Assembly: GCA_964571635.1 (NCBI GenBank)
Contig: CAZNCN010000003.1
Location: forward strand, 28,007-92,006
Direction: 5' to 3'
Source of the DNA: an uncultured Ruminococcus sp.
GTDB lineage: Bacteria; Bacillota; Clostridia; Oscillospirales; CAG-382
Length of the DNA stretch: 64,000 bases
Shown here: piece after piece, positions 1-53,549 of the stretch
Numbering within the stretch: position 1 is the first letter of the stretch
Layout: every line of letters begins with the position of its first letter
Program-made: the position numbers and the translations under genes
Notes under the pieces: generated by a model
Database searches by the model: none
What the model was told of the DNA's origin: nothing
The model's input: only the letters and a program-made list of their open reading frames with translations

Positions 1-1412
1 ATATCGCCATGGACGGCTATGCCGCTCTCGGCAAGGTTCTCACCGAAATGACCCCTCAGCAGGTCATCGACACCATACTCGCTTCGGGTCTCCGTGGCAG
101 AGGCGGCGGTGGCTTCCCCACCGGTCGCAAGTGGCAGTTCGCTGCTGACCAGACTCTCGAGAACAACCCGAACGCAGACAAAAAATATGTCGTCTGCAAC
201 GCCGACGAGGGTGACCCCGGCGCATTCATGGACAGATCGGTCCTCGAGGGCGACCCCCACGCAGTTCTCGAATCCATGGCTATCGCAGGCTATGCTATCG
301 GTGCTGACCAGGGCTATATCTATGTCCGTGCAGAATATCCTATCGCAGTCGAGCGTCTGCAGATCGCTATCGATCAGGCACACGAATACGGTATGCTCGG
401 CAAGAACATATTCGGCACAGGCTTTGACTTTGACATCTCCTTGCGTCTTGGCGCAGGTGCATTCGTCTGCGGCGAAGAGACCGCACTGCTCACCTCTATC
501 GAGGGCAACCGCGGCGAGCCCAGACCCCGTCCTCCGTTCCCTGCAGTCAAGGGTCTGTTTGGACATCCCACCATCATCAACAACGTTGAGACATATGCAA
601 ACGTTGCACAGATTATACTCAAGGGTGCTGACTGGTTCGCTTCTATGGGCACCGAAAAGTCCAAGGGCACCAAGATCTTTGCTCTCGGCGGCAAGATCAC
701 TCACACAGGCCTCGTTGAGATCCCCATGGGCACTCCCCTGCGCACTATCATCGAGGATATCGGCGGCGGCGTTCCCGGCGGCAAAAAGTTCAAGGCTGTT
801 CAGACCGGTGGCCCTTCGGGCGGCTGCATTCCCGCACACCTGCTCGACACCCCCGTTGACTATGACACTCTCGTCGCAATGGGCTGCATGATGGGCTCGG
901 GCGGCATGATCGTCATGGACGAGGACAACTGCATGGTTGACATCGCAAAGTTCTTCCTCGAATTCATCGTTGACGAATCCTGCGGCAAGTGCACACCCTG
1001 CCGTGTCGGTACTCGCAGAATGCTCGAGATACTCACCCGTATCACCGAGGGCAAGGGCGAAGAAGGCGATATTGAACGTCTCGAGGAGCTCGCCAACATG
1101 ATCAAGACCAACTCGCTCTGCGCGCTCGGTCAGACCGCTCCCAACCCCGTTCTTTCGACGCTCCGCTTCTTCCGCGACGAGTATGAAGCTCACATCAAAG
1201 AGAAGCGTTGCCCTGCAGGCAGCTGCAAGGCTTTGGCACAATACGTCATCGACCCCGAAAAGTGCAAGGGCTGCAGCGCATGCTCGCGTAAGTGCCCCGT
1301 CGGTGCTATCTCGGGCGAGATCCGCAAGCCGTTCGTCATCGACCAGAGCAAGTGCGTCAAGTGCGGCACCTGCGTCGATGTCTGCAAGTTCGGCGCGATA
1401 AGCAAGAAATAA
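1..1412 (+). CDS. hydB: Bifurcating [FeFe]-hydrogenase flavoprotein subunit HydB (NuoF/51 kDa-like), 5' end cut by window edge
   Basis: The frame is open back to nt 1. Motifs seen: [10 protein letters not shown] (FMN/NADH site), [10 protein letters not shown] (4Fe-4S) and two C-terminal CxxCxxCxxxCP ferredoxin motifs. It ends 14 nt before hydA. Confidence 0.9.
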
Positions 1413-1426
1413 GGAGGAACATATAA

Positions 1427-3172
1427 ATGAAAACTGTAACGCTCACAATTGACGGCATTCAGGTAACCGTTCCCTCCACCTACACCATACTCGATGCCGC
1501 GAGAGAAGCTCATGTCAATATTCCCACGCTTTGCTATCTCAAGGACGTCAACGAAATAGGCGCATGCCGCCTGTGCGTTGTCGAGGTCGAGAGAGCCAGA
1601 GGCCTGCAGGCTGCATGTGTCTCCCCCGTAGGCGAAGGCATGGTAGTTCACACAAATACACCCGCTCTGCGTGAATCGCGCAGACTTAACCTTGAGCTTT
1701 TGCTCTCTAACCACAACCGCGAATGCACCAGCTGCATCCGCTCGGGCAATTGCGAATTGCAGAAGCTCTGCCAGGAGTACGGCGTTGACCGCTATGGCTT
1801 TGAGGGCTGCAAGACTCATACCGAAGCACCCGACGCAGTTTCGCCCTCTATCGTTCGCGACAACAGCAAGTGCATCAACTGCCGTCGCTGCATCGCAACC
1901 TGCAACAAGGTTCAGGGCATCGGTGCTATCGGCATGTCCAAGCGTGGTTTCAAGTCGACTGTCGGCTGCATCTATGGCAAGTCGCTCGCAGAATCACCCT
2001 GCATCAACTGCGGTCAGTGCATACTCGCCTGCCCTGTCGGCGCTCTGCATGAGAAAGAGTCGATCGACGAGGTCTGGGCAGCTATCAAAGACCCCACAAA
2101 GCATGTTGTCGTTCAGCCCGCACCCGCAGTGCGTGCTACCATCGGCGAAGAATTCGGTCTGCCCATGGGCACGGCCTGCACAGGCAAGCTCGTTTCCGCA
2201 CTCCGCAGGCTCGGCTTCGACAAGGTGTTTGACACCGATTTCGCCGCAGACCTTACTATTATGGAAGAAGGCACCGAGCTTATCCACCGCCTCACCGAGG
2301 GCGGCGCTCTGCCGATGATCACCTCGTGCTCGCCCGGCTGGGTCAAGTATTGCGAGTCCTTCTATCCCGAATTCATACCCAACCTCTCGAGCTGCAAATC
2401 TCCTCACGAGATGCTCGGCGCCGTCATCAAGAGCTATTATGCTAAAAAAGCAGGCATCGATCCCAAGGACATCTATGTTGTTTCTGTCATGCCCTGCACG
2501 GCAAAGAAGTATGAGGCTAAGCGTGAAGAGCTCTCTGTCGGCGGTCTTGCAGACATTGACGCAGTCCTCACAGTCCGTGAAGCTGCCCGCATGATGAAGG
2601 CAGCAGGCATCGACTTTGCACGTCTGCCCGACGAAGACTTTGACTCTGTTCTCGGCGAATCGACCGGTGCAGGTGTCATCTTCGGCGTCACCGGCGGTGT
2701 TATGGAGGCTGCTCTCCGTACCGTTTATGAGAAGGTCACAGGCAAGACTCTCGAAAACATCGACTTTGTCGCTGTCCGCGGCATCGAAGGTGTCAAAGAG
2801 GCCGAGATCGATCTCGACGGCAAGAAGATCACCGTTGCAGTCGCAAGCGGCACAGGCAACGCAGGCAAGCTGCTTGACGCTGTCAAGAGAGGCGAAAAGG
2901 ATTATACATTCATCGAGATCATGGGCTGCCCCGGCGGCTGCGTGACCGGTGGCGGCACACCTATCGTCGACGCTACCACAAAGTGCTATGTTGATCCTCG
3001 CGTTGAGCGCGCAAAGGCTATCTACGGCGAAGACGCAGGCAAGGCAAAGCGCAAGTCCCACGAGAATGAAGAACTCAAGACGCTTTATGCAGAGTTCCTC
3101 ACCGAGCCGGGCAGCCACCTTGCACACGAATTGCTGCACACCACCTATACTGCACGCAAAAAATATAACTAA
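1427..3172 (+). CDS. hydA: [FeFe]-hydrogenase catalytic subunit HydA (581 aa)
   Basis: It has an N-terminal 2Fe-2S/4Fe-4S ferredoxin region. H-cluster motifs TSCSPGW, MPCTAKKYE and EIMGCPGGCVTGGG are present. An AAGGAGG RBS lies upstream. Confidence 0.95.
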   Translation: MKTVTLTIDGIQVTVPSTYTILDAAREAHVNIPTLCYLKDVNEIGACRLCVVEVERARGLQAACVSPVGEGMVVHTNTPALRESRRLNLELLLSNHNRECTSCIRSGNCELQKLCQEYGVDRYGFEGCKTHTEAPDAVSPSIVRDNSKCINCRRCIATCNKVQGIGAIGMSKRGFKSTVGCIYGKSLAESPCINCGQCILACPVGALHEKESIDEVWAAIKDPTKHVVVQPAPAVRATIGEEFGLPMGTACTGKLVSALRRLGFDKVFDTDFAADLTIMEEGTELIHRLTEGGALPMITSCSPGWVKYCESFYPEFIPNLSSCKSPHEMLGAVIKSYYAKKAGIDPKDIYVVSVMPCTAKKYEAKREELSVGGLADIDAVLTVREAARMMKAAGIDFARLPDEDFDSVLGESTGAGVIFGVTGGVMEAALRTVYEKVTGKTLENIDFVAVRGIEGVKEAEIDLDGKKITVAVASGTGNAGKLLDAVKRGEKDYTFIEIMGCPGGCVTGGGTPIVDATTKCYVDPRVERAKAIYGEDAGKAKRKSHENEELKTLYAEFLTEPGSHLAHELLHTTYTARKKYN

Positions 3173-3193
3173 AACAGTATATTAACTGCAAAA

Positions 3194-3231
3194 AGCGGGC
3201 GCAGATCCTCTGCGTCCGCTTGACTTTTTTT
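3194..3231 (+). terminator. Intrinsic terminator after hydA
   Basis: A 12-bp stem AGCGGGCGCAGA/TCTGCGTCCGCT (one G-U pair) has a 3-nt loop and is followed by a T-run at 3224-3231. Confidence 0.8.
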
Positions 3232-3287
3232 ATAAATACTATTATAATGCTTTTATATTTATCAAAACCAAAACAAGGAGTGACGTT

Positions 3288-4079
3288 ATGGGATACGTAT
3301 TCATCAGCTATAGCTCTGCCGACAAAGATGCCGCCGAAGCTGTGCGTGCAAGTCTTTTGAGCCGCAATATCAAATTGTGGATGGCACCCTACGACATTCC
3401 CGCAGGTCAGCGCTATGCCGCAGTTATCACCAACGCTATCAAAGAGTGCGAGTGCCTGTTGCTGTTGCTCTCGAATCAATCTCAGGCATCGACTTGGGTC
3501 GACAAGGAGCTTGAGCGTGCACTGACCTATCGCAAGCCTGTTTTCCCAATGAGAATAGACAGATGCGAGCTTGCGGGTAGCTTTGAGTTTTATCTCGGCA
3601 ACCAGCAGATCGTCGATGTTGATTCGATAGAAAACGGTGACGCAGGGTTTGAAAAAATAATCAGCGCACTAACCCCTTATGCATTTTCCGCCGCTGCCTC
3701 GCCGCAGCCTGCCGTGCAGACCGCACATATCGAAGCCACGCAGACCTCGCAGCCCGAAATAGGCTATGGTGTGCTTTTGCACACAGACACAGATATAGAT
3801 ATACATACTGATGAGCAAGCCTCGGACGGCTATGGTGCTGTCCACGGACAGCAGCACGAGCCGGAGCCCTCGCACGCTGACGAAGGGCCCGCAAAGATAG
3901 GCTATGGCGTTTTTGTCGGAGAGCATAACGCCACCGACAAATATGGTCGGATAGTCACTCATGACGAGGAGCTGCAACCGCCTGCCACTCATACTCAGGC
4001 AGAACCCCCCTCCGAGGGTGGATACGGTGCTTTGACAGGTGTGCCGTCAGAGGACGGATATGGTGCTCCGGTGGGCTAA
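3288..4079 (+). CDS. Stand-alone TIR-domain protein with low-complexity GYG-repeat C-terminal tail (263 aa)
   Basis: The N-terminal ~130 aa are TIR-like: YVFISYSSADKD, then LLLLSNQSQASTWVDKELERAL. The tail carries five [IDG]GYG[AV] repeats. An AAGGAG RBS is present. Confidence 0.8.
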   Translation: MGYVFISYSSADKDAAEAVRASLLSRNIKLWMAPYDIPAGQRYAAVITNAIKECECLLLLLSNQSQASTWVDKELERALTYRKPVFPMRIDRCELAGSFEFYLGNQQIVDVDSIENGDAGFEKIISALTPYAFSAAASPQPAVQTAHIEATQTSQPEIGYGVLLHTDTDIDIHTDEQASDGYGAVHGQQHEPEPSHADEGPAKIGYGVFVGEHNATDKYGRIVTHDEELQPPATHTQAEPPSEGGYGALTGVPSEDGYGAPVG

Positions 4080-27295: not shown

Positions 27296-29010
27296 TGCGC
27301 GCCCTCCTTCTTAAACTGCGAATCGTATATCTCGCGATACACCTCGCAGGAGTCGAGCAAAGCGTCATGAGTGCCGATGCCGACTGCCCTGCCGTCGTCG
27401 AGCACGATTATCTTATCACAGTGGGCGACCGACGAGGTGCGCTGCGAAACAATAAACACAGTCGTCTTGAAGTCAAGCTCTCTGAGTGCTTTTCTGAGTG
27501 CCGCATCGGTGGCAAAATCGAGTGCCGAAGCACTGTCATCAAGTATCAACACCTCGGGCTGACCGACGAGCGCACGCGCTATCGTGAGCCTTTGGCGCTG
27601 ACCGCCCGACAGATTTCTGCCGTCCTGCTCGATCTCGGCATCGAGTCCGCCCTTGGCTTTGGCAACATCGAGTGCCTGCGCCGCCTCAAGTGCCTTATAC
27701 AATGCCTTGTCGTCCGCCTCTCTGCCAAAGCAGAGGTTCTCTCGCATAGTGCCTCTGAAAAGCTTTGCTTTTTGGGGAACGATGCCGATCCTGCCTCTCA
27801 ATTCAGCCGCATCAAGACCTCTGACATCTTCGCCGTCGATATAGACACTGCCCTCTGTTGCCAGATAAAACCTCGGTATCAGATTGACGAGCGAGCTCTT
27901 GCCCGAGCCTGTGCCGCCGATGATGCCGATGCTTTCGCCGGGCATCGCCTTGAATGATATGTCAGCAAGCGAGTTATCTCCCGCACCTCCGTAGCAGATA
28001 GAAACGTTTTTAAACTCGACCTTGGCATTTCTGTCGCCCTCGGGCAGCCCTTTTGTGACCTCCTCACCCGTGGGAATATCGAGGAGGTCTGCGACCCTGT
28101 CTGCGCAGGCGACCGACTTTGTTATATTGATTATCAGGTCTGCCAGCTTTATCAGCTCGACAAGTATCTGCGACATATAGTTGTAAAGCGCAATGACCTG
28201 TCCCTGCGTGAGCACGCCCGAATCAACGCCCTTGCCGCCGCTGACTATCAGCACAAGCGTGGCAAAGTTGATAAGCACGAGCGTCACGGGATTGAGCAGC
28301 GCAGAGATCCTGCCGACCAGCTTTTGCAGTCCGAGCAATATTTTGCTCTCGCCGTCAAAGCGGTTCTCCTCTGCCTTTTCTCTGCCGAAAGCTCTTATCA
28401 CCCTCGCACCTGCGAGGTTCTCTTTGGTGGTGAGCAAAACTCCGTCGAGCGCATGCTGCACCTTTTTGTAAAGCGGAATGCACGAAAGCATTATGCCGAA
28501 CACAACGACCGCAAGCACAGGTATCGCAACAGCGAATATCAACGCCGACTGTACATCGATGGTGAACGCCATGATCATGGCACCGAACACCACGAACGGC
28601 GAGCGCAGCAGCAGTCTGAGTGCAAGGTTCAGACCTGTCTGTATCTGGTTTATGTCGCCTGTCATGCGTGTTATAAGCGTTGCAGAGCCGAGCGTATCGA
28701 GCGTGCGATAGTCAAACCCCTGTATATGCTCAAACACAGAATGCCTGAGCTTTGAAGCAAAGCCGACAGACGCCTTTGCCGAATAATACTGCGCCAAAAC
28801 GGTACAGCCGAGCCCCAAAAGCCCGAGCAATACCATCAGAAGCGCCATTTTTAATATATAGCCTTTATCCTCAGCGGGAATGCCGATGTCGATTATTTGG
28901 CTGACGACCAGCGGAACGAGCAATTCGAGAGATGCCTCGAGCAACTTCAGCAACGGGCCGAGGCAGATCTCTTTTTTATAGCCCTTAAGATATTTTGCAA
29001 GTCTTTTCAT
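27292..29010 (-). CDS. ABC exporter, fused permease/ATPase (heterodimer partner A)
   Basis: It has Walker A GGTGSGKSS, signature LSGGQRQR and Walker B VLILDDSAS. There is a 4-nt overlap with the downstream partner. Confidence 0.9.
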   Translation of the reverse strand: MKRLAKYLKGYKKEICLGPLLKLLEASLELLVPLVVSQIIDIGIPAEDKGYILKMALLMVLLGLLGLGCTVLAQYYSAKASVGFASKLRHSVFEHIQGFDYRTLDTLGSATLITRMTGDINQIQTGLNLALRLLLRSPFVVFGAMIMAFTIDVQSALIFAVAIPVLAVVVFGIMLSCIPLYKKVQHALDGVLLTTKENLAGARVIRAFGREKAEENRFDGESKILLGLQKLVGRISALLNPVTLVLINFATLVLIVSGGKGVDSGVLTQGQVIALYNYMSQILVELIKLADLIINITKSVACADRVADLLDIPTGEEVTKGLPEGDRNAKVEFKNVSICYGGAGDNSLADISFKAMPGESIGIIGGTGSGKSSLVNLIPRFYLATEGSVYIDGEDVRGLDAAELRGRIGIVPQKAKLFRGTMRENLCFGREADDKALYKALEAAQALDVAKAKGGLDAEIEQDGRNLSGGQRQRLTIARALVGQPEVLILDDSASALDFATDAALRKALRELDFKTTVFIVSQRTSSVAHCDKIIVLDDGRAVGIGTHDALLDSCEVYREIYDSQFKKEGAQ

Positions 29011-44958: not shown

Positions 44959-46428
44959 GTGAAGAAAATTACCGCTATTCTTTTGACTCTTGTCATGTCT
45001 CTTGCCGTGCTTGCACTCGCAGCCTGCCAGCCTGCAGAGCAGAACATAAAGCAAAAGCTGCTATCAGACCTAAAAGAATACCAAAACGTCAACCTCACCG
45101 AAAGGATCGACTCGTCAAGCCTCTTGGGCACCGCTTATAACGCACAGCTCAATATAACCGAGCTCACCGCAGGCGGCGAAGAGAACCTTTTGCCCTCGGG
45201 TCTGACTCTCGGCTATTCGACAGTCACAGACACCAACGGCTCAAAGCAAAATATTACATTCGGACTTGGTGACGACGCCCTCAAGCTCGATGCCATAATA
45301 AGCACAGACAGCAAGATGTATATACAGCTTGACGGCAAATCAGAGTTTTTCAGCTACAGCACGCTCGAAAACACAGACTTCGACGCAGACATAAATACCG
45401 CATTCGATGCCAAGAACGATCTGCAGCCCATTTATGATGCGATACTCAAATACGCCATCGCATTCGCAGAAGCTATTCCCGACACCGCCATCGACACCGA
45501 AGACGGCTATAGCATCAAGATAACCGAGGCAGACGTCAAAGCGATGCTTGGCTCTGTCATCGACACCCTCAAGGTCGACGAAGATGTCAAAGCGCTCATC
45601 GTCAAGTATGCGGGTCAAGAGGGCTATGACAGCTTTATCGCAGAGCTTGATACCGAAGACATCGACCTCGGCGAGGTCGAGCTGACTGTAAAAGAGACAG
45701 AAGCCGACGGTGCCGAAGTCACCACCACGGCATTCAAATATGACGGCACGAAGCTCGAGATTGTTTCGACCGAAAAGGACGACCATTCCACCGTCACTGT
45801 CAAGTTCACCGACGAGGACGAAAACAGCTTTGAAGCCACCTACGGCAAAAAAGGCGCAAAGGGCGAGGAGCAGTGCGAGTTCTCGCTCAAGTCAGAGGAC
45901 ATAAACATCGATTACTCGTCCGACAAAAAAGCAGACAAGACAGCGCTCAAGCTTGACATAGGCGAAGCATTCACGCTCACCTATTCGCGTGACAAAGCAG
46001 CAATCAACGCAAAAATACTCGTAGGCGACGAGAGCGGCGAAAAATCAGAGATACTCAGCATGGTATCATCCTCAAAGACCGAGGGCGACATCATCACTGC
46101 AGAAACCACCGTCAGCATCAGCTCTGAGGGCGTGATACTGCCTGTCAAGATCATGAGCACCGTCAACACCAAGGATGGCACTCTTTCGGGCACGCTTGAT
46201 TTTGAAGCGCTCGGACTCAAGGCAGAGTTCTCTGCTTCGCAGAGCGAGAGCACCCAAAAGGTAACTATTCCCGAGAATGCAACCGAGATCATCGGCGAAA
46301 CGGGCGAGGGCATTGCGACATTCATGGAAGCACTTCAGGAAATGCTCGAAGATCACCCCGACATCGCCTTGTTCTTCTCTCAGTTCGGCGGTATTAAAGG
46401 CGACGCTCAGCCAGACACCGAGTTTTAA
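44959..46428 (+). CDS. Hypothetical lipoprotein (489 aa)
   Basis: It has a GTG start with an AAGGAG RBS and a signal peptide with the lipobox LALAAC. The mature part is acidic and T/E/D-rich. Confidence 0.7.
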   Translation: MKKITAILLTLVMSLAVLALAACQPAEQNIKQKLLSDLKEYQNVNLTERIDSSSLLGTAYNAQLNITELTAGGEENLLPSGLTLGYSTVTDTNGSKQNITFGLGDDALKLDAIISTDSKMYIQLDGKSEFFSYSTLENTDFDADINTAFDAKNDLQPIYDAILKYAIAFAEAIPDTAIDTEDGYSIKITEADVKAMLGSVIDTLKVDEDVKALIVKYAGQEGYDSFIAELDTEDIDLGEVELTVKETEADGAEVTTTAFKYDGTKLEIVSTEKDDHSTVTVKFTDEDENSFEATYGKKGAKGEEQCEFSLKSEDINIDYSSDKKADKTALKLDIGEAFTLTYSRDKAAINAKILVGDESGEKSEILSMVSSSKTEGDIITAETTVSISSEGVILPVKIMSTVNTKDGTLSGTLDFEALGLKAEFSASQSESTQKVTIPENATEIIGETGEGIATFMEALQEMLEDHPDIALFFSQFGGIKGDAQPDTEF

Positions 46429-47108
46429 TCGAGTAGGAAGCTAACCATTACTTGATCAGCTGTCCTCTCACACCACCGTGCGTACCGATCGGTACACGGC
46501 GGTTCAATCATAAACAGTGCAGAGACTTGTATGCCTCGGATATGTCATAGTATCCGCGGTGTGCAAGTCTTTTGTTTGTTATGGTGTGAGTTAATATCAT
46601 CCGCATACTCCTTCACTTTGAGGATTGCATCCTTTGCACTTCTGTGCGGTCTGTAGCCGTAGCTTGCTATGCAATTTACGGATTGTATGACATGATCAGT
46701 CGCATTAATCGTCCACCCCTTCCCTCCGTGGTGATTAGTCACTTCTTCGGTACTATGAGCGGAGCTGACTTCTGCAAGTTCAACCGCTGCCTTTCGACAC
46801 GGCTTACTCCTATGGGAAGTTAGGAGCGTACCTTGCAGACCTCCTCGGGTAAGCGTTACCACCTTCACCTCATATATCTGCTGCATTTACACCCTGAAAT
46901 TCGGGCAGTATCGGACTTCGTTTTGTACTGGAAACTCGTCCGTTTCAAAATGCCTTATATGCGATTTCTGTTCGTCAGACCGAGGTTTTGCCGCCGACTT
47001 CCTTCAGACTCCACCTCACGATGGACACCATTGTCTTTGGCTAACAGTTCCTACTGCCAAGTCTGTAGCGGACTTTCACCGCCAAGTGGTAACACATGCC
47101 AAGCGCAC
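46428..47108 (-). mobile_element. Degenerate class C (IIC) group II intron, about 680 nt, with the IEP ORF largely deleted
   Basis: The minus strand starts GTGCG at 47108, 6 nt after the U-tract of the tRNA-Leu terminator. Domain V (46480-46511) has 9 bp, a 2-nt bulge, 4 bp and a tetraloop, with a CGC triad whose G pairs with U. Domain VI has a bulged A 7 nt before a terminal AT. The 3' boundary is uncertain by a few nt. Confidence 0.75.
46545..46886 (-). pseudogene. Remnant of group II intron reverse transcriptase/maturase
   Basis: The ORF contains GGKGWTINATDHVIQSV...SYGYRPHRSAKDAILKV, which matches the RT0/RT1 region. The rest of RT, the X domain and the En domain are absent. Confidence 0.7.
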
Positions 47109-47114
47109 AGCAAC

Positions 47115-47152
47115 AAAAAAAATCGACATCGCGATGCGATGTCGATTTTTTT
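47115..47152 (-). terminator. Intrinsic terminator of tRNA-Leu (target site of the intron)
   Basis: A 10-bp stem TCGACATCGC/GCGATGTCGA with a 3-nt loop is followed by eight U residues on the minus strand. Confidence 0.85.
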
Positions 47153-47153
47153 A

Positions 47154-47237
47154 TGCGGGTAATAGGACTTGAACCTACACGAAGTCGCCCTCACTAGAAC
47201 CTGAATCTAGCGCGTCTGCCAATTCCGCCATACCCGC
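47154..47237 (-). tRNA. tRNA-Leu (anticodon CAG)
   Basis: The acceptor is GCGGGTA/TACCCGC. The anticodon stem CTAGA/TCTAG has loop TTCAGGT. It has a long variable arm and a GGTTCAAGTCC T arm. Confidence 0.9.
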
Positions 47238-47339: not shown

Positions 47340-48104
47340 TCAAAAATCGATGCGAATAACCGCCTTATCGTCGGCATATGGCTTGTCGTACGGTGCGGAT
47401 GCGGTCAGCATCTCGTCTGTCGACATTGAAAGTATGCGCTCGACAGGCTCACTTTGCAGGAATCCCGCCAGTCCGTCAGAGCTGAGCAATATCGTATCGC
47501 CCGCCTTTATCTCTGTAAACGAGCTTTCGAGCAGGTCGGCAAGCTCGGGATCGCCGTTGAAAATGCCGTACGCCATATCACTCTCGGGGTGATTGCAGAC
47601 CTCGGCGTATATGCGCTCCTTGCTATAGCCGCTTTTTGCGACCGCAAGTGTCTGTTGTCTTGTTATCAGCCTGCGCTGACCGTTTGAAAAATGCAAGCCT
47701 ATGCAGTCGCCTGCCCAGACGCAGCACAAAGTGTTGCCCGACAAAACGGCGGCTATGCCGACCGCTCCGGGGGTAAAACGCCACTCTGCCATCGTTTTGC
47801 TGTTGCGATAAGGCATTATTGCGGCGTTGGCGTTCACAAGCACCTCACGCAAGGCAGTTTCGAGTGCCGTCGGCTCTAAGCCTGCGAGCCTTGGCGCTTT
47901 GGGCATAATGCTGTCACGCAATATCCTGTCGATTTGGCAGGCATAGCTGTCGCCCGAGCCGTCGTATTCCTCATGGGGGCGAGTTATGCCGTCGAGTATC
48001 AAAAACAATCCGCTTGCCTCATCGATACAGATAAGGTCCTCGTTGGGCTTGCCTATGTTTCTGTCGTTTATGCATGTTGATGTTGAAAGTTTAAAACCGA
48101 TCAA
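47340..48104 (-). CDS. PP2C-family (PPM/SpoIIE-like) serine/threonine phosphatase, 254 aa
   Basis: The TTG start lies 2 nt after the upstream stop, and a GGGAGG SD sits inside the end of the upstream gene. Motifs are KPNEDL, LFLILDGITR, VWAGDCIG, ILLSSDGL and DDKAVIRI. Confidence 0.8.
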   Translation of the reverse strand: MIGFKLSTSTCINDRNIGKPNEDLICIDEASGLFLILDGITRPHEEYDGSGDSYACQIDRILRDSIMPKAPRLAGLEPTALETALREVLVNANAAIMPYRNSKTMAEWRFTPGAVGIAAVLSGNTLCCVWAGDCIGLHFSNGQRRLITRQQTLAVAKSGYSKERIYAEVCNHPESDMAYGIFNGDPELADLLESSFTEIKAGDTILLSSDGLAGFLQSEPVERILSMSTDEMLTASAPYDKPYADDKAVIRIDF

Positions 48105-48106
48105 AA

Positions 48107-49624
48107 TTATACCTCCCGAGGCGCTATACCGAATTTGCGGCGAATAGCACCAACTATAAGCTCGATATGCTTTGTCGACGTTGGATCATCCGAACGCCTT
48201 ATAAAATCTCCCGCATCTGTAAAGGTCGATAAAAAGCTGACCATCTTTTCGCTGCCGAAATCTGCGCGATATATAGCCGACTCGTCGCTCTTCCTTATCG
48301 TATCTATCATTATTCTCGACGGGATCTCGCCCGTGAGATTGACGGCAAAAAACATCGAACTGATCATTTCGCCTGTCGACTTTGCCTTTGCGCACAAAAG
48401 CTGTATTTCTTTTGAAAGCGGTGCGCTCAAAACAGACTGCCAGCCGAGATAAAACATCACGCCGACGCAGTTTTTGTCGCGTATTCTTTCGGCGACTGTC
48501 ACATCCCAATCGTTGCCTGCGAGTACAGCACCGTGGTCATAGAGAAACGGAACGCGTCGCAAAGCAAGCTCGAGCATATCGCAATAGACACTCTTATAAT
48601 CACAACGGTTATAGCAGATAAAAACATATTTGCCGCCGTATGTGTTGGCAGGAGGAAACGACATCAGATCGTGCTCGCTCTCTGACTCAATTATTTCTTG
48701 CTTTAAAGAAAGAATATTGCTTTCGTTAACATCGGTGCCGACATAGGCTCGTGCCTCGTCGAGCTCATCCTCGAGGTCGAATATCCTCGATGATATCTCG
48801 TCACGCAGGCTTTGATAGTCGCCGACACGCGATATATAATCGCCCCTGTTGAGGTCCTCAAGATAGACGGCTTTTTCGCAATCATCGCGTGCATCATACA
48901 GCACTCTCAGCGTTTGCCCATTCGCATTTGATGTATCTGCAAGATAATAATGCAGCTTTGCACGAATGAAATAATATTTTGCATAATTAGAGTTGTATTC
49001 TATCGCAGACTCTATGGCATTGAGTGCAAGATCTCGGTCGTCGGCAGAAACACGCATATTCTTTGAAAGCATGATAGAAACCGTCGAGGCGAACGAGCAG
49101 CTCACGCCGACGTTCTCGACTCCCAGGCTTTCAAGCATTCTGATAGCACGGCGTGCATCGAACAGTGCAGCATCAAGATCATTCTTTTTTGCACCGCGCT
49201 TGTCACTGCGAGAGATGAGGTCATATACAAGCGGCATATCTCTGAATATTTCGGTGCACCTGTGCTCGCTGTCGTCAAGCAAAATATGCATTTCTTCGGT
49301 CTGCTTATCAGAAACATAATAGGTGATAAGGATAAAAAATGCCGCAAAGCCCCTGAGCCTTGTCTTGCTCGGAGGTGTCGTATATTTCTCGTCAAAGGCG
49401 GCATGGTATATGCGTTTTAATATATCCGCCATCTGCACACCATAGTTTGCGGCAAGCCAAGAGGCAAGATATGAAAACGAATAGTCATAAACGCCGTATT
49501 CTGTGACGAGCCTGTCAAGCATCTCGCAGACAGTCTCTTCGCTGACGGTGTTGCCAACCAAATGCTCTGCGTATATGCAAAACTCGACCACATTCGCTCT
49601 CATGGCTTCGAATGTTTCATTCAT
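48107..49624 (-). CDS. Helical-repeat (TPR-like) protein with C-terminal TIR-like domain, 505 aa
   Basis: The start is at MNETFEAM with an AAAGGAGG RBS. The C-terminal part shows a TIR pattern: KYVFICYNRCDYKSV..., PFLYDHG..., VGVMFYLGWQSVLSAPLSKEIQLL. No signal peptide or TM segment is present. Confidence 0.7.
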   Translation of the reverse strand: MNETFEAMRANVVEFCIYAEHLVGNTVSEETVCEMLDRLVTEYGVYDYSFSYLASWLAANYGVQMADILKRIYHAAFDEKYTTPPSKTRLRGFAAFFILITYYVSDKQTEEMHILLDDSEHRCTEIFRDMPLVYDLISRSDKRGAKKNDLDAALFDARRAIRMLESLGVENVGVSCSFASTVSIMLSKNMRVSADDRDLALNAIESAIEYNSNYAKYYFIRAKLHYYLADTSNANGQTLRVLYDARDDCEKAVYLEDLNRGDYISRVGDYQSLRDEISSRIFDLEDELDEARAYVGTDVNESNILSLKQEIIESESEHDLMSFPPANTYGGKYVFICYNRCDYKSVYCDMLELALRRVPFLYDHGAVLAGNDWDVTVAERIRDKNCVGVMFYLGWQSVLSAPLSKEIQLLCAKAKSTGEMISSMFFAVNLTGEIPSRIMIDTIRKSDESAIYRADFGSEKMVSFLSTFTDAGDFIRRSDDPTSTKHIELIVGAIRRKFGIAPREV

Positions 49625-49655
49625 ATTGTCGCCTCCTTTGAATACTCTACAAACT

Positions 49656-49684
49656 ATTATAATACACCGCAAAGCTTTTTGCAA
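49656..49684 (-). promoter_or_regulatory. Sigma-A promoter for the TIR-PP2C operon
   Basis: On the minus strand: TTGCAA, 17-nt spacer, TATAAT. An imperfect 8-bp hairpin overlaps the -35 element. Confidence 0.55.
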
Positions 49685-49747
49685 GCACAAAAAGCCTGCA
49701 ACCCGTCTTCTGTCAGCTTTTTGCACAACAAACGCACAATAAAACTG

Positions 49748-49776
49748 TTGCATTTCTGCATTCGTGATGTTATAAT
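49748..49776 (+). promoter_or_regulatory. Sigma-A promoter for the alpha-galactosidase gene
   Basis: TTGCAT, 17-nt spacer, TATAAT, with TGt at the extended -10 position. Confidence 0.55.
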
Positions 49777-49824: not shown

Positions 49825-50958
49825 ATGATAGTCACCAGACCGCCGATGGGCTGGAACTCATGGAACACTTTTGCATCCAACATCAACGAACAGCTTATCA
49901 AGGAAACCGCCGATATCATGGTCGAGAGCGGACTGCGCGACGCAGGCTATGATTATCTTGTTATCGACGACTGCTGGTCGCTGCCCGAGCGCGACGAAAA
50001 CGGCAGGATCGTCCCCGACCCTGCAAAATTCCCCAACGGAATGAAGGCCGTTGCCGATTATGTGCACTCAAAGGGGCTCAAATTCGGCATGTATTCCTGC
50101 AACGGCAACCTGACCTGCGCAGGTTTCCCCGGCTCATTCGAGCACGAATTTGTTGACGCAGAGACATTTGCAGAATGGGGCGTTGACTATTTAAAATACG
50201 ACAACTGCTTCAGACCCATGCATCAGCCCGGTGAGCTGCTTTACCGCCGCATGGGACTCGCATTGGCAAACTGCGGCAGAGACATATGCTTTTCTGCCTG
50301 CAACTGGGGCATTGACAACTCTCCCGACTGGATCAAGACCACAGGTGCGCACCTCTGGCGCTCGACCGGTGACATATTTGACAAGTGGGAGTCTGTCAAG
50401 GAGCTTTCTATGCATCAGCTCGAATTGCTCACACGCAACGGACAGGGCTGCTTTAACGACATGGACATGCTCGTCGTCGGTATGCACGGCAACGGACACG
50501 TCGGCATGGGCGGCATGACGTTTGAAGAATACAAGACACACTTCTCTATCTGGTGTTTCCTCGGTTCGCCGCTTATGATAGGCTGCGACATCCGCAATAT
50601 GGATGACGAAACAAAGCAAATACTGTTCAACAAAGAGATCATCGCCATCGACCAGGACGCTGCCTACCGTCAGCCCTTCACCATCGGCGACAGCTGGGGC
50701 AACAGAGAGGTATGGGTCATGGGACGTCACCTTGAAAACGGCGACATTGCCATCGGCATGTTCAACCTCTGCGACAGCGATTCGTGGCCTATCTTCTCAC
50801 TTGACGCGCTCGGACTCAACCGTTCAACAGGCATGACTCTCGAGATGACCGACGTCTGGTCGGGCGAAAAGGTCAAGGTGTCCAACGAAATGTTCAGACT
50901 CCCCTGCCTGCCTGCGCACACCTGCCGCGTATTCAGAGCCAAGGTCGTAAAGGCATAA
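49825..50958 (+). CDS. Alpha-galactosidase (GH27)
   Basis: The motifs PPMGWNSWN, YLVIDDCW and YLKYDNC are present, with a C-terminal beta-sandwich region. Confidence 0.9.
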   Translation: MIVTRPPMGWNSWNTFASNINEQLIKETADIMVESGLRDAGYDYLVIDDCWSLPERDENGRIVPDPAKFPNGMKAVADYVHSKGLKFGMYSCNGNLTCAGFPGSFEHEFVDAETFAEWGVDYLKYDNCFRPMHQPGELLYRRMGLALANCGRDICFSACNWGIDNSPDWIKTTGAHLWRSTGDIFDKWESVKELSMHQLELLTRNGQGCFNDMDMLVVGMHGNGHVGMGGMTFEEYKTHFSIWCFLGSPLMIGCDIRNMDDETKQILFNKEIIAIDQDAAYRQPFTIGDSWGNREVWVMGRHLENGDIAIGMFNLCDSDSWPIFSLDALGLNRSTGMTLEMTDVWSGEKVKVSNEMFRLPCLPAHTCRVFRAKVVKA

Positions 50959-51158
50959 TGGACTGCATCACCTGCGGCAAAAAGCTGACCGCAGACGACG
51001 TGGGCGCAACAAAAAAGCTCATCAACCGCGGAGCCACCGAATTTCTGTGCATCGACTGCCTCGCAAAGCGTTTTAACGTCACAAGAGAGCTGATCGAGCA
51101 GAAGATAGTCGCGTGGAAGCGCATGGGCTGCCTTTTGTTCCCACCCGAAAACAAATAG
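50958..51158 (+). CDS. Small zinc-ribbon protein (66 aa), hypothetical
   Basis: It has CITCG...CIDC (four Cys). Its ATG overlaps the TAA of the GH27 gene by 1 nt. Confidence 0.55.
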   Translation: MDCITCGKKLTADDVGATKKLINRGATEFLCIDCLAKRFNVTRELIEQKIVAWKRMGCLLFPPENK

Positions 51159-51234
51159 CAATAAAAAGCACCGCATCGTCGGTGCTTTTTTGTTTTGCCC
51201 TGCATATTCTGTAGCAAAAGGAGGATAAACTTTT

Positions 51235-52241
51235 GTGAAAGAATATTTCGCCGGAGGCAATACCGCCGACGGCTTTATAAATTACCTGCCGTATGCAGCA
51301 AAGGGCAAAAGCAAAATTTGGATAATGCGTGGCTGTCCGGGCTGCGGCAAAAGCACTTTTTTAAAAAAGCTGTCAAAGGCGCATTTGCCAAAGGGCTATA
51401 TCACGAGCTGATATACTGCTCCTCTGACCCGTCGTCGCTTGACGGAATAGTCATTCCCGAAATGAGCTTTGCGATATTCGACGGCACTTCGCCGCACACG
51501 CTCGAGGTCAGATATCCGCTCGCAGTCGAACGCGAGATAGACCTGTCCGCATTCTGCCGTGAGCCAACAGACAGCGCCAAAGCAGAGATAAAAGAGCTCA
51601 TAGACCGCAAAAAGCAATTATACAGGCGAGGCTATATGCTGCTTTCCGCCGCCGAAATGGTCAAAAATTCGTTTTATGAAAAGACAGACGAATATATTCT
51701 GCGCGGCAAGATAGCAAAATACGCAGCTCGTGTGTCGCAAAAGACGCTTCAGTCGGGCGATGACACATTCATGCAGATAACAGCCTTCGGAGGTGAAGGC
51801 ATACGGCGTCTTCATGGCGCGCTTGAAAGCGATGCAAAAACGATATATTATATCTCCGACATCGGCTTTGGCGTCAGAGAAAGGCTTTTTGAGGCGATAG
51901 TCAGCAGCACGGGAGGCAAAAAGAGGATATTGTCGTTTGATGCCTTTTCGTCAAAGCGCTGCACCGACATTCTGGTCGGCGACACACTCTTCACCTCATC
52001 AGACATCAAAGGTGCAAAAAAGGTGTCAGCAAAGCGTTTTTTGTCGCACGAAGCGATTTCAAAGCTCGGAAAAGAGCGCAAGCAGATATCAGAGCAGTAC
52101 GCCATACTGACCGAAAAAGCCAAAGTGCTTTTTGCCGCCGCTTCTCTCTTGCACGGCGAGATAGAGGCATATTATACCCCTCTCATCGACATCGAAGCAC
52201 TTAACGCCCATGAAGCAAAGCTTTTGGCAGAATTGCTTTAA
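51235..52241 (+). pseudogene. Uncharacterised P-loop ATPase requiring a -1 frameshift at 51363-51369 (frameshifted, sequencing error or recoded)
   Basis: A GTG start has an AAAGGAGG RBS. Frame 1 encodes VKEYFAGGNTADGF...GCPGCGKSTFLKK and then stops at 51409. The -1 frame continues AVKGAFAKGLYHELIYCSSDPSSLDG... to 52241. The junction is a T6A6 run. Confidence 0.7.
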
Positions 52242-52291: not shown

Positions 52292-52738
52292 ATGGATATG
52301 ACATTTTTAAAGGCTGTGCTCAAGGGAGCACTTATAGGGCTTGCGTGTATCGCGGCAGTTTCGATAATAACCGCACTCGCTCTGACCATGGTGACAGATC
52401 CGCTTGCATTGATAACCGCCTGTGCAATGATCGCAGATTTTGCAGGCGGAGCAGCAGCCGCCATTGCGGCGATCTCGTTCAGAAAGCAAAAGCCCCTGCC
52501 GACAGCCGTCTGTGCAGGAGCCGTTGTATGTCTTGTTTTGTGCATTCTTTCGCTTATATCGGGCTGTGTCGACAGACTTTGGTCTGCGCTTGCAATAACC
52601 CTGCTCGGCTCATTGATCGGTGCACTCGTACCCGCTATACACGGCAGCAAGAGCAAGCGCCCGAGATTGCAGCAGGCGCACAGAAAGGGAATGGCAAAAA
52701 GGCAACATCAGTCGCCGCTCAATATTCCTATGCAATAA
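52292..52738 (+). CDS. Small multi-pass membrane protein, hypothetical
   Basis: It has about four hydrophobic segments and a basic C-terminal tail. The start is uncertain (52265, 52292 or 52298). Confidence 0.55.
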   Translation: MDMTFLKAVLKGALIGLACIAAVSIITALALTMVTDPLALITACAMIADFAGGAAAAIAAISFRKQKPLPTAVCAGAVVCLVLCILSLISGCVDRLWSALAITLLGSLIGALVPAIHGSKSKRPRLQQAHRKGMAKRQHQSPLNIPMQ

Positions 52739-53373
52739 TCGCGGTATATCAAATAATGCTCGTGCAATGTTATGCCGTTTGACGAAAGCGACGAAATAAT
52801 GCGTGCTGTCGAATCAAGGTCTGATTGCGACGGTATCATAGGGCCGCTTGGATGGTTGTGTGCTATGATAACATTGTGGCTCTCATACATCAAAGCTCGC
52901 TCAGTGATGTCTCGTATTCTGAAATCCGCGCCGTTTATGCTGCCGCGATAAAGCATTGTGGCGTCAAGCATAAAGCCGTTTTCGTCAAGGCATAAGAGCA
53001 TGACGAACTCCTGCTTGAGCCCCTCAAAGCTGCTTATCAAAAATTTCGATGCCGCTTCGCTCTCAAAATAATTGACGTCTGTGCGTTCGTTTTTTGGCAA
53101 TACACGCTTTGACAGCTCGGGCAGCATCTTTATAAGCATTGCGGTATGAGCCGAAACGCCGCACTGCTCTGTAAGCTCGGTGGCGTCGGCACTTGCAATG
53201 CTTTGCAGATTGCCGTATTTTTCGATAAGTGCAGACGCAATAGGTCTTGTGTCACGCCTCGGGATAGCGTATGTCAAAAGCAATTCGAGCACCGTCAGGT
53301 CGTCAAATGCCGACGATGATTGCAAAAAGCGTTCTTTGAGGCGTTCTCTGTGACCGCTGTTTATATCATCCAT
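52708..53373 (-). CDS. radC: RadC-family JAB/MPN domain protein
   Basis: The start is at MDDINSGHRERLKERF. An HhH region and the JAMM motif HNHPSG...SQSD are present. Confidence 0.85.
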   Translation of the reverse strand: MDDINSGHRERLKERFLQSSSAFDDLTVLELLLTYAIPRRDTRPIASALIEKYGNLQSIASADATELTEQCGVSAHTAMLIKMLPELSKRVLPKNERTDVNYFESEAASKFLISSFEGLKQEFVMLLCLDENGFMLDATMLYRGSINGADFRIRDITERALMYESHNVIIAHNHPSGPMIPSQSDLDSTARIISSLSSNGITLHEHYLIYRDYCIGILSGD

Positions 53374-53549
53374 ATGATCTGCACGCCGAAACACGCACGG
53401 CAAATTTAAAGATAAATGACAAAAACATTTTATACGCCTCCCTTTAACATTATAATACACAAAATATGCCCTGTTGTCAATGCTAATTAATGCTTGCAAA
53501 ATTTGTGCCTATGTGCTATAATAATCGTGAATAATGGGGGTAGTTTGCC

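Follow-up and report, generated by a model that had tools for sequence, protein, structure and literature searches.

The window analysed here is a stretch of 64,000 nucleotides (positions 28,007 to 92,006 of the forward strand of contig CAZNCN010000003.1, GenBank assembly GCA_964571635.1) from an uncultured Ruminococcus sp. Two genes on its minus strand, here called A and B, are the subject of this report. Gene A (48107..49624, stop included) encodes a 505-residue protein in which a helical-repeat region precedes a predicted TIR domain, and gene B (47340..48104), starting at a TTG codon, encodes a predicted phosphatase of the PPM/PP2C type, 254 residues in length. By synteny, gene fusion, co-evolution and self-containment, A and B are one system, and we hold this list of parts, together with the physical and functional coupling of the two genes, with high confidence.

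The reading frame of gene A extends from an ATG at 49624-49622 (MNETF...) to a TAA at 48109-48107. The N-termini of five homologs coincide with this methionine (MNETF/MQETF), and because the homologs start at the same residue the 505-residue model is taken as correct; a 548-residue model, from the mechanical open reading frame (ORF) at 48107-49753, was ruled out by the position of the Shine-Dalgarno sequence as well as by the homolog N-termini. Direct reading places that sequence, AAAGGAGG, at 49632..49639 on the minus strand, 7 nt 5' of the ATG. Two bases (48106-48105) separate the stop codon of gene A from the TTG of gene B at 48104, and the Shine-Dalgarno sequence of gene B, GGGAGG (48112..48117, minus strand), lies within the last codons of gene A, with a 7-nt spacer to the TTG. 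A preliminary description of the locus had reported the 505-residue length, the TTG start, the two-nucleotide gap and the GGGAGG site; all are present, and the gap and the placement of the site bear out the translational coupling it proposed. The strings it quoted as TIR-like (KYVFICYNRCD, PFLYDHG and VGVMFYLGWQSVLSAPLSKEIQLL) occur in the gene A protein, as do NED, LILDG, AGDC, SSDGL and DD.AVI in the 254-residue protein. It had also given the pair a promoter of its own, TTGCAA-17-TATAAT. A candidate sigma-70-type element for the A-B operon, with 10 of 12 matches, does occur at 49656..49684 on the minus strand, but as evidence of a promoter it is weak, such matches being frequent: in the 2.8-kb region 11 promoter-like sites were counted, where shuffled sequences predict 4.0. 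GC content deviates only mildly (46.7% in gene A, 50.1% in the window).

The first domain of the gene A protein, residues 1 to about 320 (48665..49624, minus strand), is predicted to be an all-alpha solenoid resembling tetratricopeptide repeats (TPR). In an AlphaFold2 model with a mean predicted local distance difference test (pLDDT) score of 78, the chain is exclusively helical to residue 320 and then enters a five-fold beta-alpha domain. The top Foldseek matches of the helical part are the TPR proteins Ctr9, SPY (SPINDLY), EMC2 and Acl4 (E 2e-3 to 6e-3, probability about 1.0), in keeping with the helical-repeat N-terminus of the preliminary description. Mean pairwise identity across the family is 29% for the solenoid, 36% for the TIR domain and 42% for the PP2C domain. 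As the least conserved module, the solenoid is the most plausible specificity or sensor element, and a sensory or regulatory role is presumed for it.

The second domain, residues 331-505 (48110..48634, minus strand), appears to be a divergent TIR domain, composed of five beta-alpha units and a family-specific C-terminal extension. Direct searches with the gene A protein gave no match in Pfam, NCBIfam, PADLOC or the PDB (by phmmer) beyond noise; a hit to VpsP (E 2e-4, scoring 21 bits where the cut-off is 125) and hits to GATase_4 and LacI were dismissed as such. A word-indexed search of 5.8 billion proteins returned only five relatives of A, 45-92% identical and without Pfam domain or name, and the same kind of search with an alignment of fused relatives as query again returned five. 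An exhaustive search of 1.84 billion representatives with a profile built from six A sequences found 839 proteins at E <= 1e-3, 50 of them at E <= 1e-30, and re-mapping both halves of the profile onto the best 150 of these matches showed A to be bipartite. Relatives that match TIR_2 are retrieved by the A-family profile at E <= 1e-17, and several exceed the gathering score of 28 bits for Pfam TIR_2 (PF13676, STIR clan), such as P0054 (49.9 bits) and P0095 (101.6 bits). In an alignment of 29 C-terminal domains headed by the window sequence, TIR_2 is matched by 23 (best E 2.4e-12), TIR by five and ThsB_TIR by four; among relatives in which A and B are fused, 23 of 25 match TIR_2 (best E 1.3e-13). 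Against the PDB, the profile of the C-terminal domain finds ThsB (9uv0, E 0.0019) as its best match, followed by the TIR domains of MyD88 and RPV1, the latter two weakly.

The modelled secondary structure of this domain runs bA (333-338), aA, bB (360-362), aB, bC (386-393), aC (401-417), bD (425-429), aD, bE (474-476), aE, with pLDDT about 80-89 over most of residues 331-500. Foldseek matches it to the TIR domain of RPS4 (4c6r/4c6t; template-modelling score TMt 0.65, probability 1.00, E 8e-3) and, again at probability 1.00, to a viral TIR/WD40 protein. Glu406 (codon GAA, 48407..48409, minus strand) immediately follows strand bC, where helix aC begins, in the form G-x5-S-x5-E of the motif [S/G]-x5-S-x5-E, and aligns with the Glu of the REEI motif in ThsB. 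Its position, which we take to be that of the catalytic Glu of NAD+-cleaving TIR domains (SARM1 E642, RPS4 E88, AbTir E208, ThsB E85), holds Glu in 138 of 143 family domains and is invariant both in the A1 alignment and in the 25 fusion proteins. Within the extension, an NLT motif and a His (H486) are conserved. Because a profile bridge leads to TIR_2-positive relatives and the model matches the RPS4 TIR domain, the sequence and structure predictions identify A as a TPR-like solenoid joined to a divergent but genuine TIR domain of enzymatic type; the TIR fold and the retained Glu that had been suggested from the sequence are both upheld, and the domain would be expected to act as an NADase.

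Gene B alone falls below the cut-offs of the models it matches: 15.0 bits to Pfam PP2C (PF00481; E 0.02, cut-off 20.3) and 25 bits to NCBIfam Stp1_PP2C (E 1.1e-5, cut-off 230). It has 17 homologs, 36-91% identical, one of which (P0017) carries PF13672, and a profile of the family matches tPphA (2j82) in the PDB at E 2.9e-10, with PstP, Stp1 and related enzymes at about 1e-5. The motifs of B are NED (E22 D23), LILDG (D38 G39), AGDC (G132 D133), SSDGL (D210 G211) and DDKAVI (D245 D246). The HMMER alignment with tPphA sets NED on SNQD (D18), LDG on ADG (D34-G35), GDC on GDS and SDGL on SDGL; the metal-binding reference residues in tPphA are D18, D34/G35, D193 and D231, and the DDK of B, outside the aligned stretch, was assigned by position. 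All five residue pairs of B (E22-D23, D38-G39, G132-D133, D210-G211 and D245-D246) are invariant in 18 sequences and in 25 fusions. PP2C_2 is matched by 17 of the 25 fused relatives and PP2C by 16. The fold was tested on a model of one of them, P0023, which in its PP2C part shares 46% identity with B and stands in for it here: its best structural matches are PppA (6jkv, TMt 0.79, E 3.5e-10) and, at probability 1.00, tPphA, MspP, PstP and Stp1. With a complete set of metal-binding Asp motifs, the profile match to tPphA and the fold of the fused homolog, the earlier assignment of B to the PP2C phosphatases stands, and its sequence makes it very probable that B is an active PPM phosphatase belonging to a subfamily of its own. 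That subfamily is marked by DGITR in place of DGxGG, by the motifs CNHP and YGIFNGD, and by invariant additional residues near the active site (R42, E46, Y47, C170-N171 and N183-G184-D185) that classical PP2Cs do not have. A PADLOC hit of B to the PDC-M21C component (E 0.006, 13.8 bits) was set aside, since A and the fused relatives match no PDC-M21 component.

The linkage of A and B was examined at 14 independent loci, with domain order read at each from three domain hidden Markov models (HMMs) or from gene calls. Ten have separate genes (the window and the 92%-identical L010, counted as one; L001, L004, L005, L006, L008, L011, L012, L015 and L022) and four have fused genes (L014, L017, L020 and L021). 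The order helical domain, TIR, PP2C, on one strand, holds at all 14. Gaps between separate genes range from -8 to +34 nt, and single-chain fusions of the three domains in this order, about 740-900 residues long, account for at least 26 of the 150 top representative clusters. Across the 25 fusions compared, the TIR Glu and the PP2C motifs ED, DG, GDC, DG and DD are invariant, a sign that selection maintains both enzymes. Pairwise identities of A and of B co-vary (r = 0.86 over nine split loci, 36 locus pairs). An all-against-all BLAST of every ORF from 13 loci revealed no third conserved gene; besides A and B, the sole shared neighbours were one-off genes in two single locus pairs, and the neighbours of 755 and 753 residues (L004, L005), 426 residues (L001) and 218 residues (L012) are not shared between loci and match nothing in Pfam or PADLOC. 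Because synteny and fusion hold while the flanks differ, the A-B pair has not come together by chance, nor does it belong to a conserved housekeeping operon; it behaves as a small mobile cassette. That the two genes would prove to be conserved neighbours in related genomes, outside any core synteny, agrees with these results, the flanks being different in each lineage.

Two kinds of architectural variant are informative as to function. In some variants, including P0044 and P0047, a SMEK_N domain is added at the N-terminus (Pfam E 2.7e-46; PADLOC Aga_REase E 2.5e-34), and at L015 a SMEK_N-helical-TIR protein (354-3338) is followed 34 nt downstream by the PP2C gene. SMEK is listed in PMC10810196 among the nuclease domains of partner proteins of short prokaryotic Argonautes (pAgo). 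In about ten clusters of 335-458 residues (P0132, P0135, P0138, P0143, P0146, P0153, P0167, P0169, P0170 and P0171) the solenoid is without a TIR domain and leads instead into a coiled coil and three predicted transmembrane helices. Exchange of TIR and transmembrane effectors on a constant regulatory scaffold is typical of the abortive-infection effectors of CBASS (cyclic oligonucleotide-based antiphage signalling), Pycsar (pyrimidine cyclase system for antiphage resistance) and Thoeris.

The C-terminal 195 or so residues of the A profile also recur, at the N-terminus, in many multidomain proteins that bear MORN repeats, BspA-type LRR_5 repeats or repeats of other kinds. The same TIR subfamily, with a core and an extension of about 70 residues ending in the conserved His, was seen in P0054-P0131 (e.g., P0087, P0088, P0103, P0060 and P0055), where its partners are MORN repeats, BspA-type LRR_5 repeats or tandem TIR domains; it is sizeable, and seemingly little characterised. 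Other genes were noted beside the module at single loci. At L004 (10529-16240) a protein of about 755 residues and then a 1134-residue TIR_2 and Sel1 giant come after the pair, as do, at L005 (5122-10724), a protein of the same size class and then a DUF4062 giant of at least 1364 residues; the two 755-residue-class proteins show no mutual similarity at E 1e-8. At L021 an LRR_5 protein is encoded directly downstream of the fused gene. At L017/L018 (6303-10436) a gene for a 563-residue protein with Metallophos and 5'-nucleotidase-C domains ends 7 nt before a fused helical-TIR-PP2C gene of 811 residues, and is a possible operon partner of the fused gene in that one lineage.

In the window, the pair is bordered by the features that the preliminary description named, each confirmed by Pfam, Rfam or the sequence. 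Upstream of gene A lies a divergent GH27 alpha-galactosidase gene (49825-50958; Pfam Melibiase_2, E 3.6e-74). Downstream of gene B is tRNA-Leu(CAG) (47154-47237, minus strand), with a perfect extended promoter of its own, TTGACA-17-(TG)TATAAT (47320-47292, minus strand), beginning 20 nt past the stop of B; no terminator lies between gene B and the tRNA gene, and the terminator of the latter is a perfect 17-bp hairpin with flanking A/T runs (47116-47152). Directly 3' of this hairpin comes an ORF-less group II intron (about 46428-47025, minus strand), recognised by Rfam as group-II-D1D4-3 at 46852-47025 (144 bits), D1D4-1 at 46716-46806 (33.5 bits, slightly below the 35-bit gathering score) and domain V/VI at 46428-46504. 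It encloses no reverse-transcriptase ORF, and its 113-residue ORF (46545-46886) has no Pfam match. In place of this segment of roughly 690 bp (46428-47116, minus strand), L010, a Ruminococcus metagenome-assembled genome (MAG) locus, has about 165 bp, and the intron is therefore a recent insertion; class C group II introns are known to insert immediately downstream of terminator hairpins. Farther out are a 489-residue protein with a lipoprotein-like signal (…LALAAC) and no Pfam match (44959-46428, plus strand), a 66-residue Cys-rich ORF and a 348-residue ORF, neither with a Pfam match (50958-52241, plus strand), and a RadC-like JAB protein (52708-53499, minus strand). None of these four recurs beside the module at the other loci.

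The distribution of the module is rare and patchy and, judging by source names, comprises only uncultured Clostridia (the Ruminococcus sp. MAG and entries labelled 'Clostridia bacterium'); insensitive pattern-based scans added one genome locus and one metagenome locus. Flanking genes by lineage include an Opp transporter and MetRS; an AAA-protease, a TPR protein and the TIR_2-Sel1 giant; the DUF4062 giant; polysaccharide genes; HSP90 and SpoVT; a two-component system and CoaX; RNase J and EPSP synthase; and rplJ-rplL. No flanking direct repeats or island boundaries were found around the pair. The suggestion that it sits in defence-island or accessory territory for the most part did not hold up. 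Neighbours of a conflict-like kind are confined to two of the 14 loci, L004 (TIR_2-Sel1 giant, AAA-protease) and L005 (DUF4062 giant). With recurrent co-location with defence genes not seen in this small sample of 14, the defence reading is lowered rather than dismissed, and a defence role may still be proposed.

We suggest that the module is a self-contained switch in which a sensor, a TIR NADase and a phosphatase act together in conflict or stress in Clostridia, a proposal to which we give about an even chance. Its three modules, in fixed order, would be a fast-evolving TPR-like solenoid, a TIR domain with a catalytic Glu, and a metal-dependent PP2C Ser/Thr phosphatase; translational coupling, or residence on a single polypeptide, would supply them in roughly equal amounts, to act as a complex. 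The solenoid would be the input, sensing a trigger or holding the protein autoinhibited, in the way of the SARM1 ARM domain. As the output, the TIR domain would on oligomerisation hydrolyse NAD+ or make an NAD-derived nucleotide. The PP2C domain would keep the TIR protein, or a bound partner, dephosphorylated and so provide a brake, a threshold or a reset, and the opposing kinase would be supplied in trans, either a Hanks-type kinase of the host or one from an invader. Overall, the module would serve as a conflict switch, acting in the manner of abortive infection, or as a stress switch. The NADase activity, the target of the phosphatase, the direction of control, the biological role and any anti-phage role are parts of this model that we infer.

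Several observations weigh against the proposal. The gene A protein has no match to the Pfam TIR models even at E <= 1, and its own structural match to a TIR domain is modest (E 8e-3, TMt 0.65). Flanks at the 14 loci are largely housekeeping genes, ribosomal protein genes among them, and PADLOC recognises no system in A, B or the fused relatives. A tblastn search found no match to A in phage and plasmid collections, and pattern-based scans, which were insensitive, found no copy of the module in viral contigs. The cassette encodes no kinase, so that a phospho-switch needs a partner in trans. In the AlphaFold2 model of the fused protein the arrangement of domains is not confident (predicted template-modelling score, pTM, 0.44), and the model therefore gives no structural hint as to which residue faces the phosphatase.

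The C-terminus of A might instead adopt some other flavodoxin-like fold, with a housekeeping phosphatase of the Stp/PrpC type merely adjacent to it. The missing direct matches of A in Pfam, NCBIfam, PADLOC and the PDB and the Foldseek E-value of only 8e-3 would fit, but the family profile, at E < 1e-17, links A to proteins that pass the TIR_2 gathering score, the order of secondary structure elements and the S-x5-S-x5-E motif are those of a TIR domain, and 14 of 14 syntenic loci, 26 fusion clusters and the lack of any fixed position relative to housekeeping genes are not what a chance neighbour would show. This explanation is very improbable and we regard it as effectively refuted. An unlikely account, though the most plausible of those considered beside the switch, accepts the TIR domain and makes it a non-enzymatic scaffold: as an adaptor, it would recruit PP2C through TIR-TIR contacts to TIR-MORN, TIR-LRR_5 and TIR-Sel1 proteins, in physiological signalling whose output is dephosphorylation and neither NAD+ cleavage nor defence. 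The same TIR subfamily, extension included, heads many proteins with MORN, LRR_5 or Sel1 repeats, such proteins lie near the module at L004 (the 1134-residue TIR_2-Sel1 protein) and L021 (LRR_5), and the flanks are mostly housekeeping. A pure scaffold, however, does not need the Glu that 138 of 143 domains keep, and animal adaptor TIR domains such as that of MyD88 are without it in the alignment; moreover, no TIR-repeat partner is conserved beside the module, and the 64-kb window contains none. The strong conservation of the Glu is the reason for disfavouring a non-enzymatic adaptor.

Catalysis by both domains is retained if the phosphatase acts on a small molecule, that is, if PP2C dephosphorylates a nucleotide that the TIR domain makes or consumes (2'-phospho-ADP-ribose derived from NADP, for example, or a phosphoribosyl-nucleotide), so that the two are consecutive enzymes of one pathway. 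The obligatory fusion or coupling of the catalytic domains, without a kinase, would be explained, as would the invariant extra residues around the active site of B that classical PP2Cs lack and the Metallophos/5'-nucleotidase gene 7 nt upstream of the fused gene at L017/L018. Yet we know of no enzyme of the PPM family that uses a nucleotide substrate, the 5'-nucleotidase neighbour occurs in one lineage only, and binding of a phosphoprotein would account for the extra conserved residues just as well; we consider this explanation improbable, and somewhat less likely than the scaffold. The sensor, TIR NADase and phosphatase switch remains the reading that we prefer.

Several immune systems depend centrally on bacterial TIR enzymes, and the means by which these are restrained and reset are understood for few architectures. 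In the module described here, a PP2C phosphatase is the obligatory partner of the TIR domain, and a cyclase, an Argonaute, a STAND NTPase and ThsA are all absent. Should the switch operate as proposed, reversible protein phosphorylation would join the modes of control of bacterial TIR domains, an echo of the way in which SARM1 and the TIR adaptors of animals are regulated by phosphorylation, and the module would offer a compact system of one or two genes for testing such control. More speculatively, and with the odds well against it, the module could be the first bacterial pathway that wires TIR chemistry or TIR-TIR assembly directly to phospho-signalling, going beyond an abortive-infection effector that depletes NAD+. 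In one version of that idea, PP2C would process a phosphorylated nucleotide signal made by the TIR domain; in the other, TIR-TIR recruitment would bring the phosphatase to MORN, LRR or Sel1 TIR 'receptors', a cascade of receptor, adaptor and phosphatase analogous to TLR-MyD88-IRAK. The results also define a distinct TIR subfamily, its core joined to a conserved extension of about 70 residues, which is widespread in Clostridia and fused to MORN and LRR repeats, and a new helical domain whose partner can be either a TIR or a membrane-spanning module.

The literature searched yielded no paper on a TIR-PP2C system from bacteria; Kaur et al. 2020 (PMC7159879) mention PP2C once, for an actinobacterial system of kinase, PP2C and vWA, not TIR. 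With PADLOC and the literature both negative, the pair matches no named system, as the preliminary description had supposed, and within the limits of these searches the TIR and PP2C module is apparently undescribed. It shares with Thoeris ThsB a TIR domain with a conserved Glu, ThsB being the closest sequence match of the family profile in the PDB, and relatives give weak PADLOC matches to the SAVED_TIR, Aga_TIR and ThsB models, while the SMEK variant recalls the effector domains of short-pAgo partners. Unlike Thoeris, however, the cassette has no ThsA (SIR2/SLOG or Macro), and neither A nor B has a PADLOC match to ThsA or ThsB; unlike CBASS and Pycsar, it has no cyclase and no SAVED domain; and unlike SPARTA (short prokaryotic Argonaute, TIR-APAZ), it has no Argonaute and no APAZ. 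A PP2C partner is part of none of these four.

On the phosphatase side, the PPM fold and the complete set of metal-binding Asp residues resemble those of PppA, from the threonine-phosphorylation pathway of the type VI secretion system, of Stp1/PrpC/PstP and of tPphA, and PppA, tPphA, MspP, PstP and Stp1 are the best structural matches of the PP2C part. PP2Cs of the PppA and Stp1/PrpC/PstP types reset or brake a kinase-driven switch. In contrast to PpkA-PppA, Stk1-Stp1 and the TerY-P triad defence system (vWA, PP2C and kinase), B is always linked to a TIR domain, and no member of the Pkinase, vWA or FHA families was found among the called neighbours of the module loci. On the TIR side, the module resembles SARM1 and C. 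elegans TIR-1 in having a helical-repeat solenoid that precedes a TIR domain in which the catalytic Glu is kept, and TIR-1 (8p2m) is among the Foldseek matches of the whole A model (E 0.022). The solenoid of SARM1 autoinhibits and senses metabolites, and the enzyme is modulated by phosphorylation as well. SARM1/TIR-1 has the arrangement ARM-SAM-TIR; the module, which is bacterial, has no SAM domain, a TPR-like solenoid not detectably homologous to ARM repeats, and a dedicated PP2C. By analogy, then, the resemblance to SARM1/TIR-1 may be one of the way of working rather than of membership.

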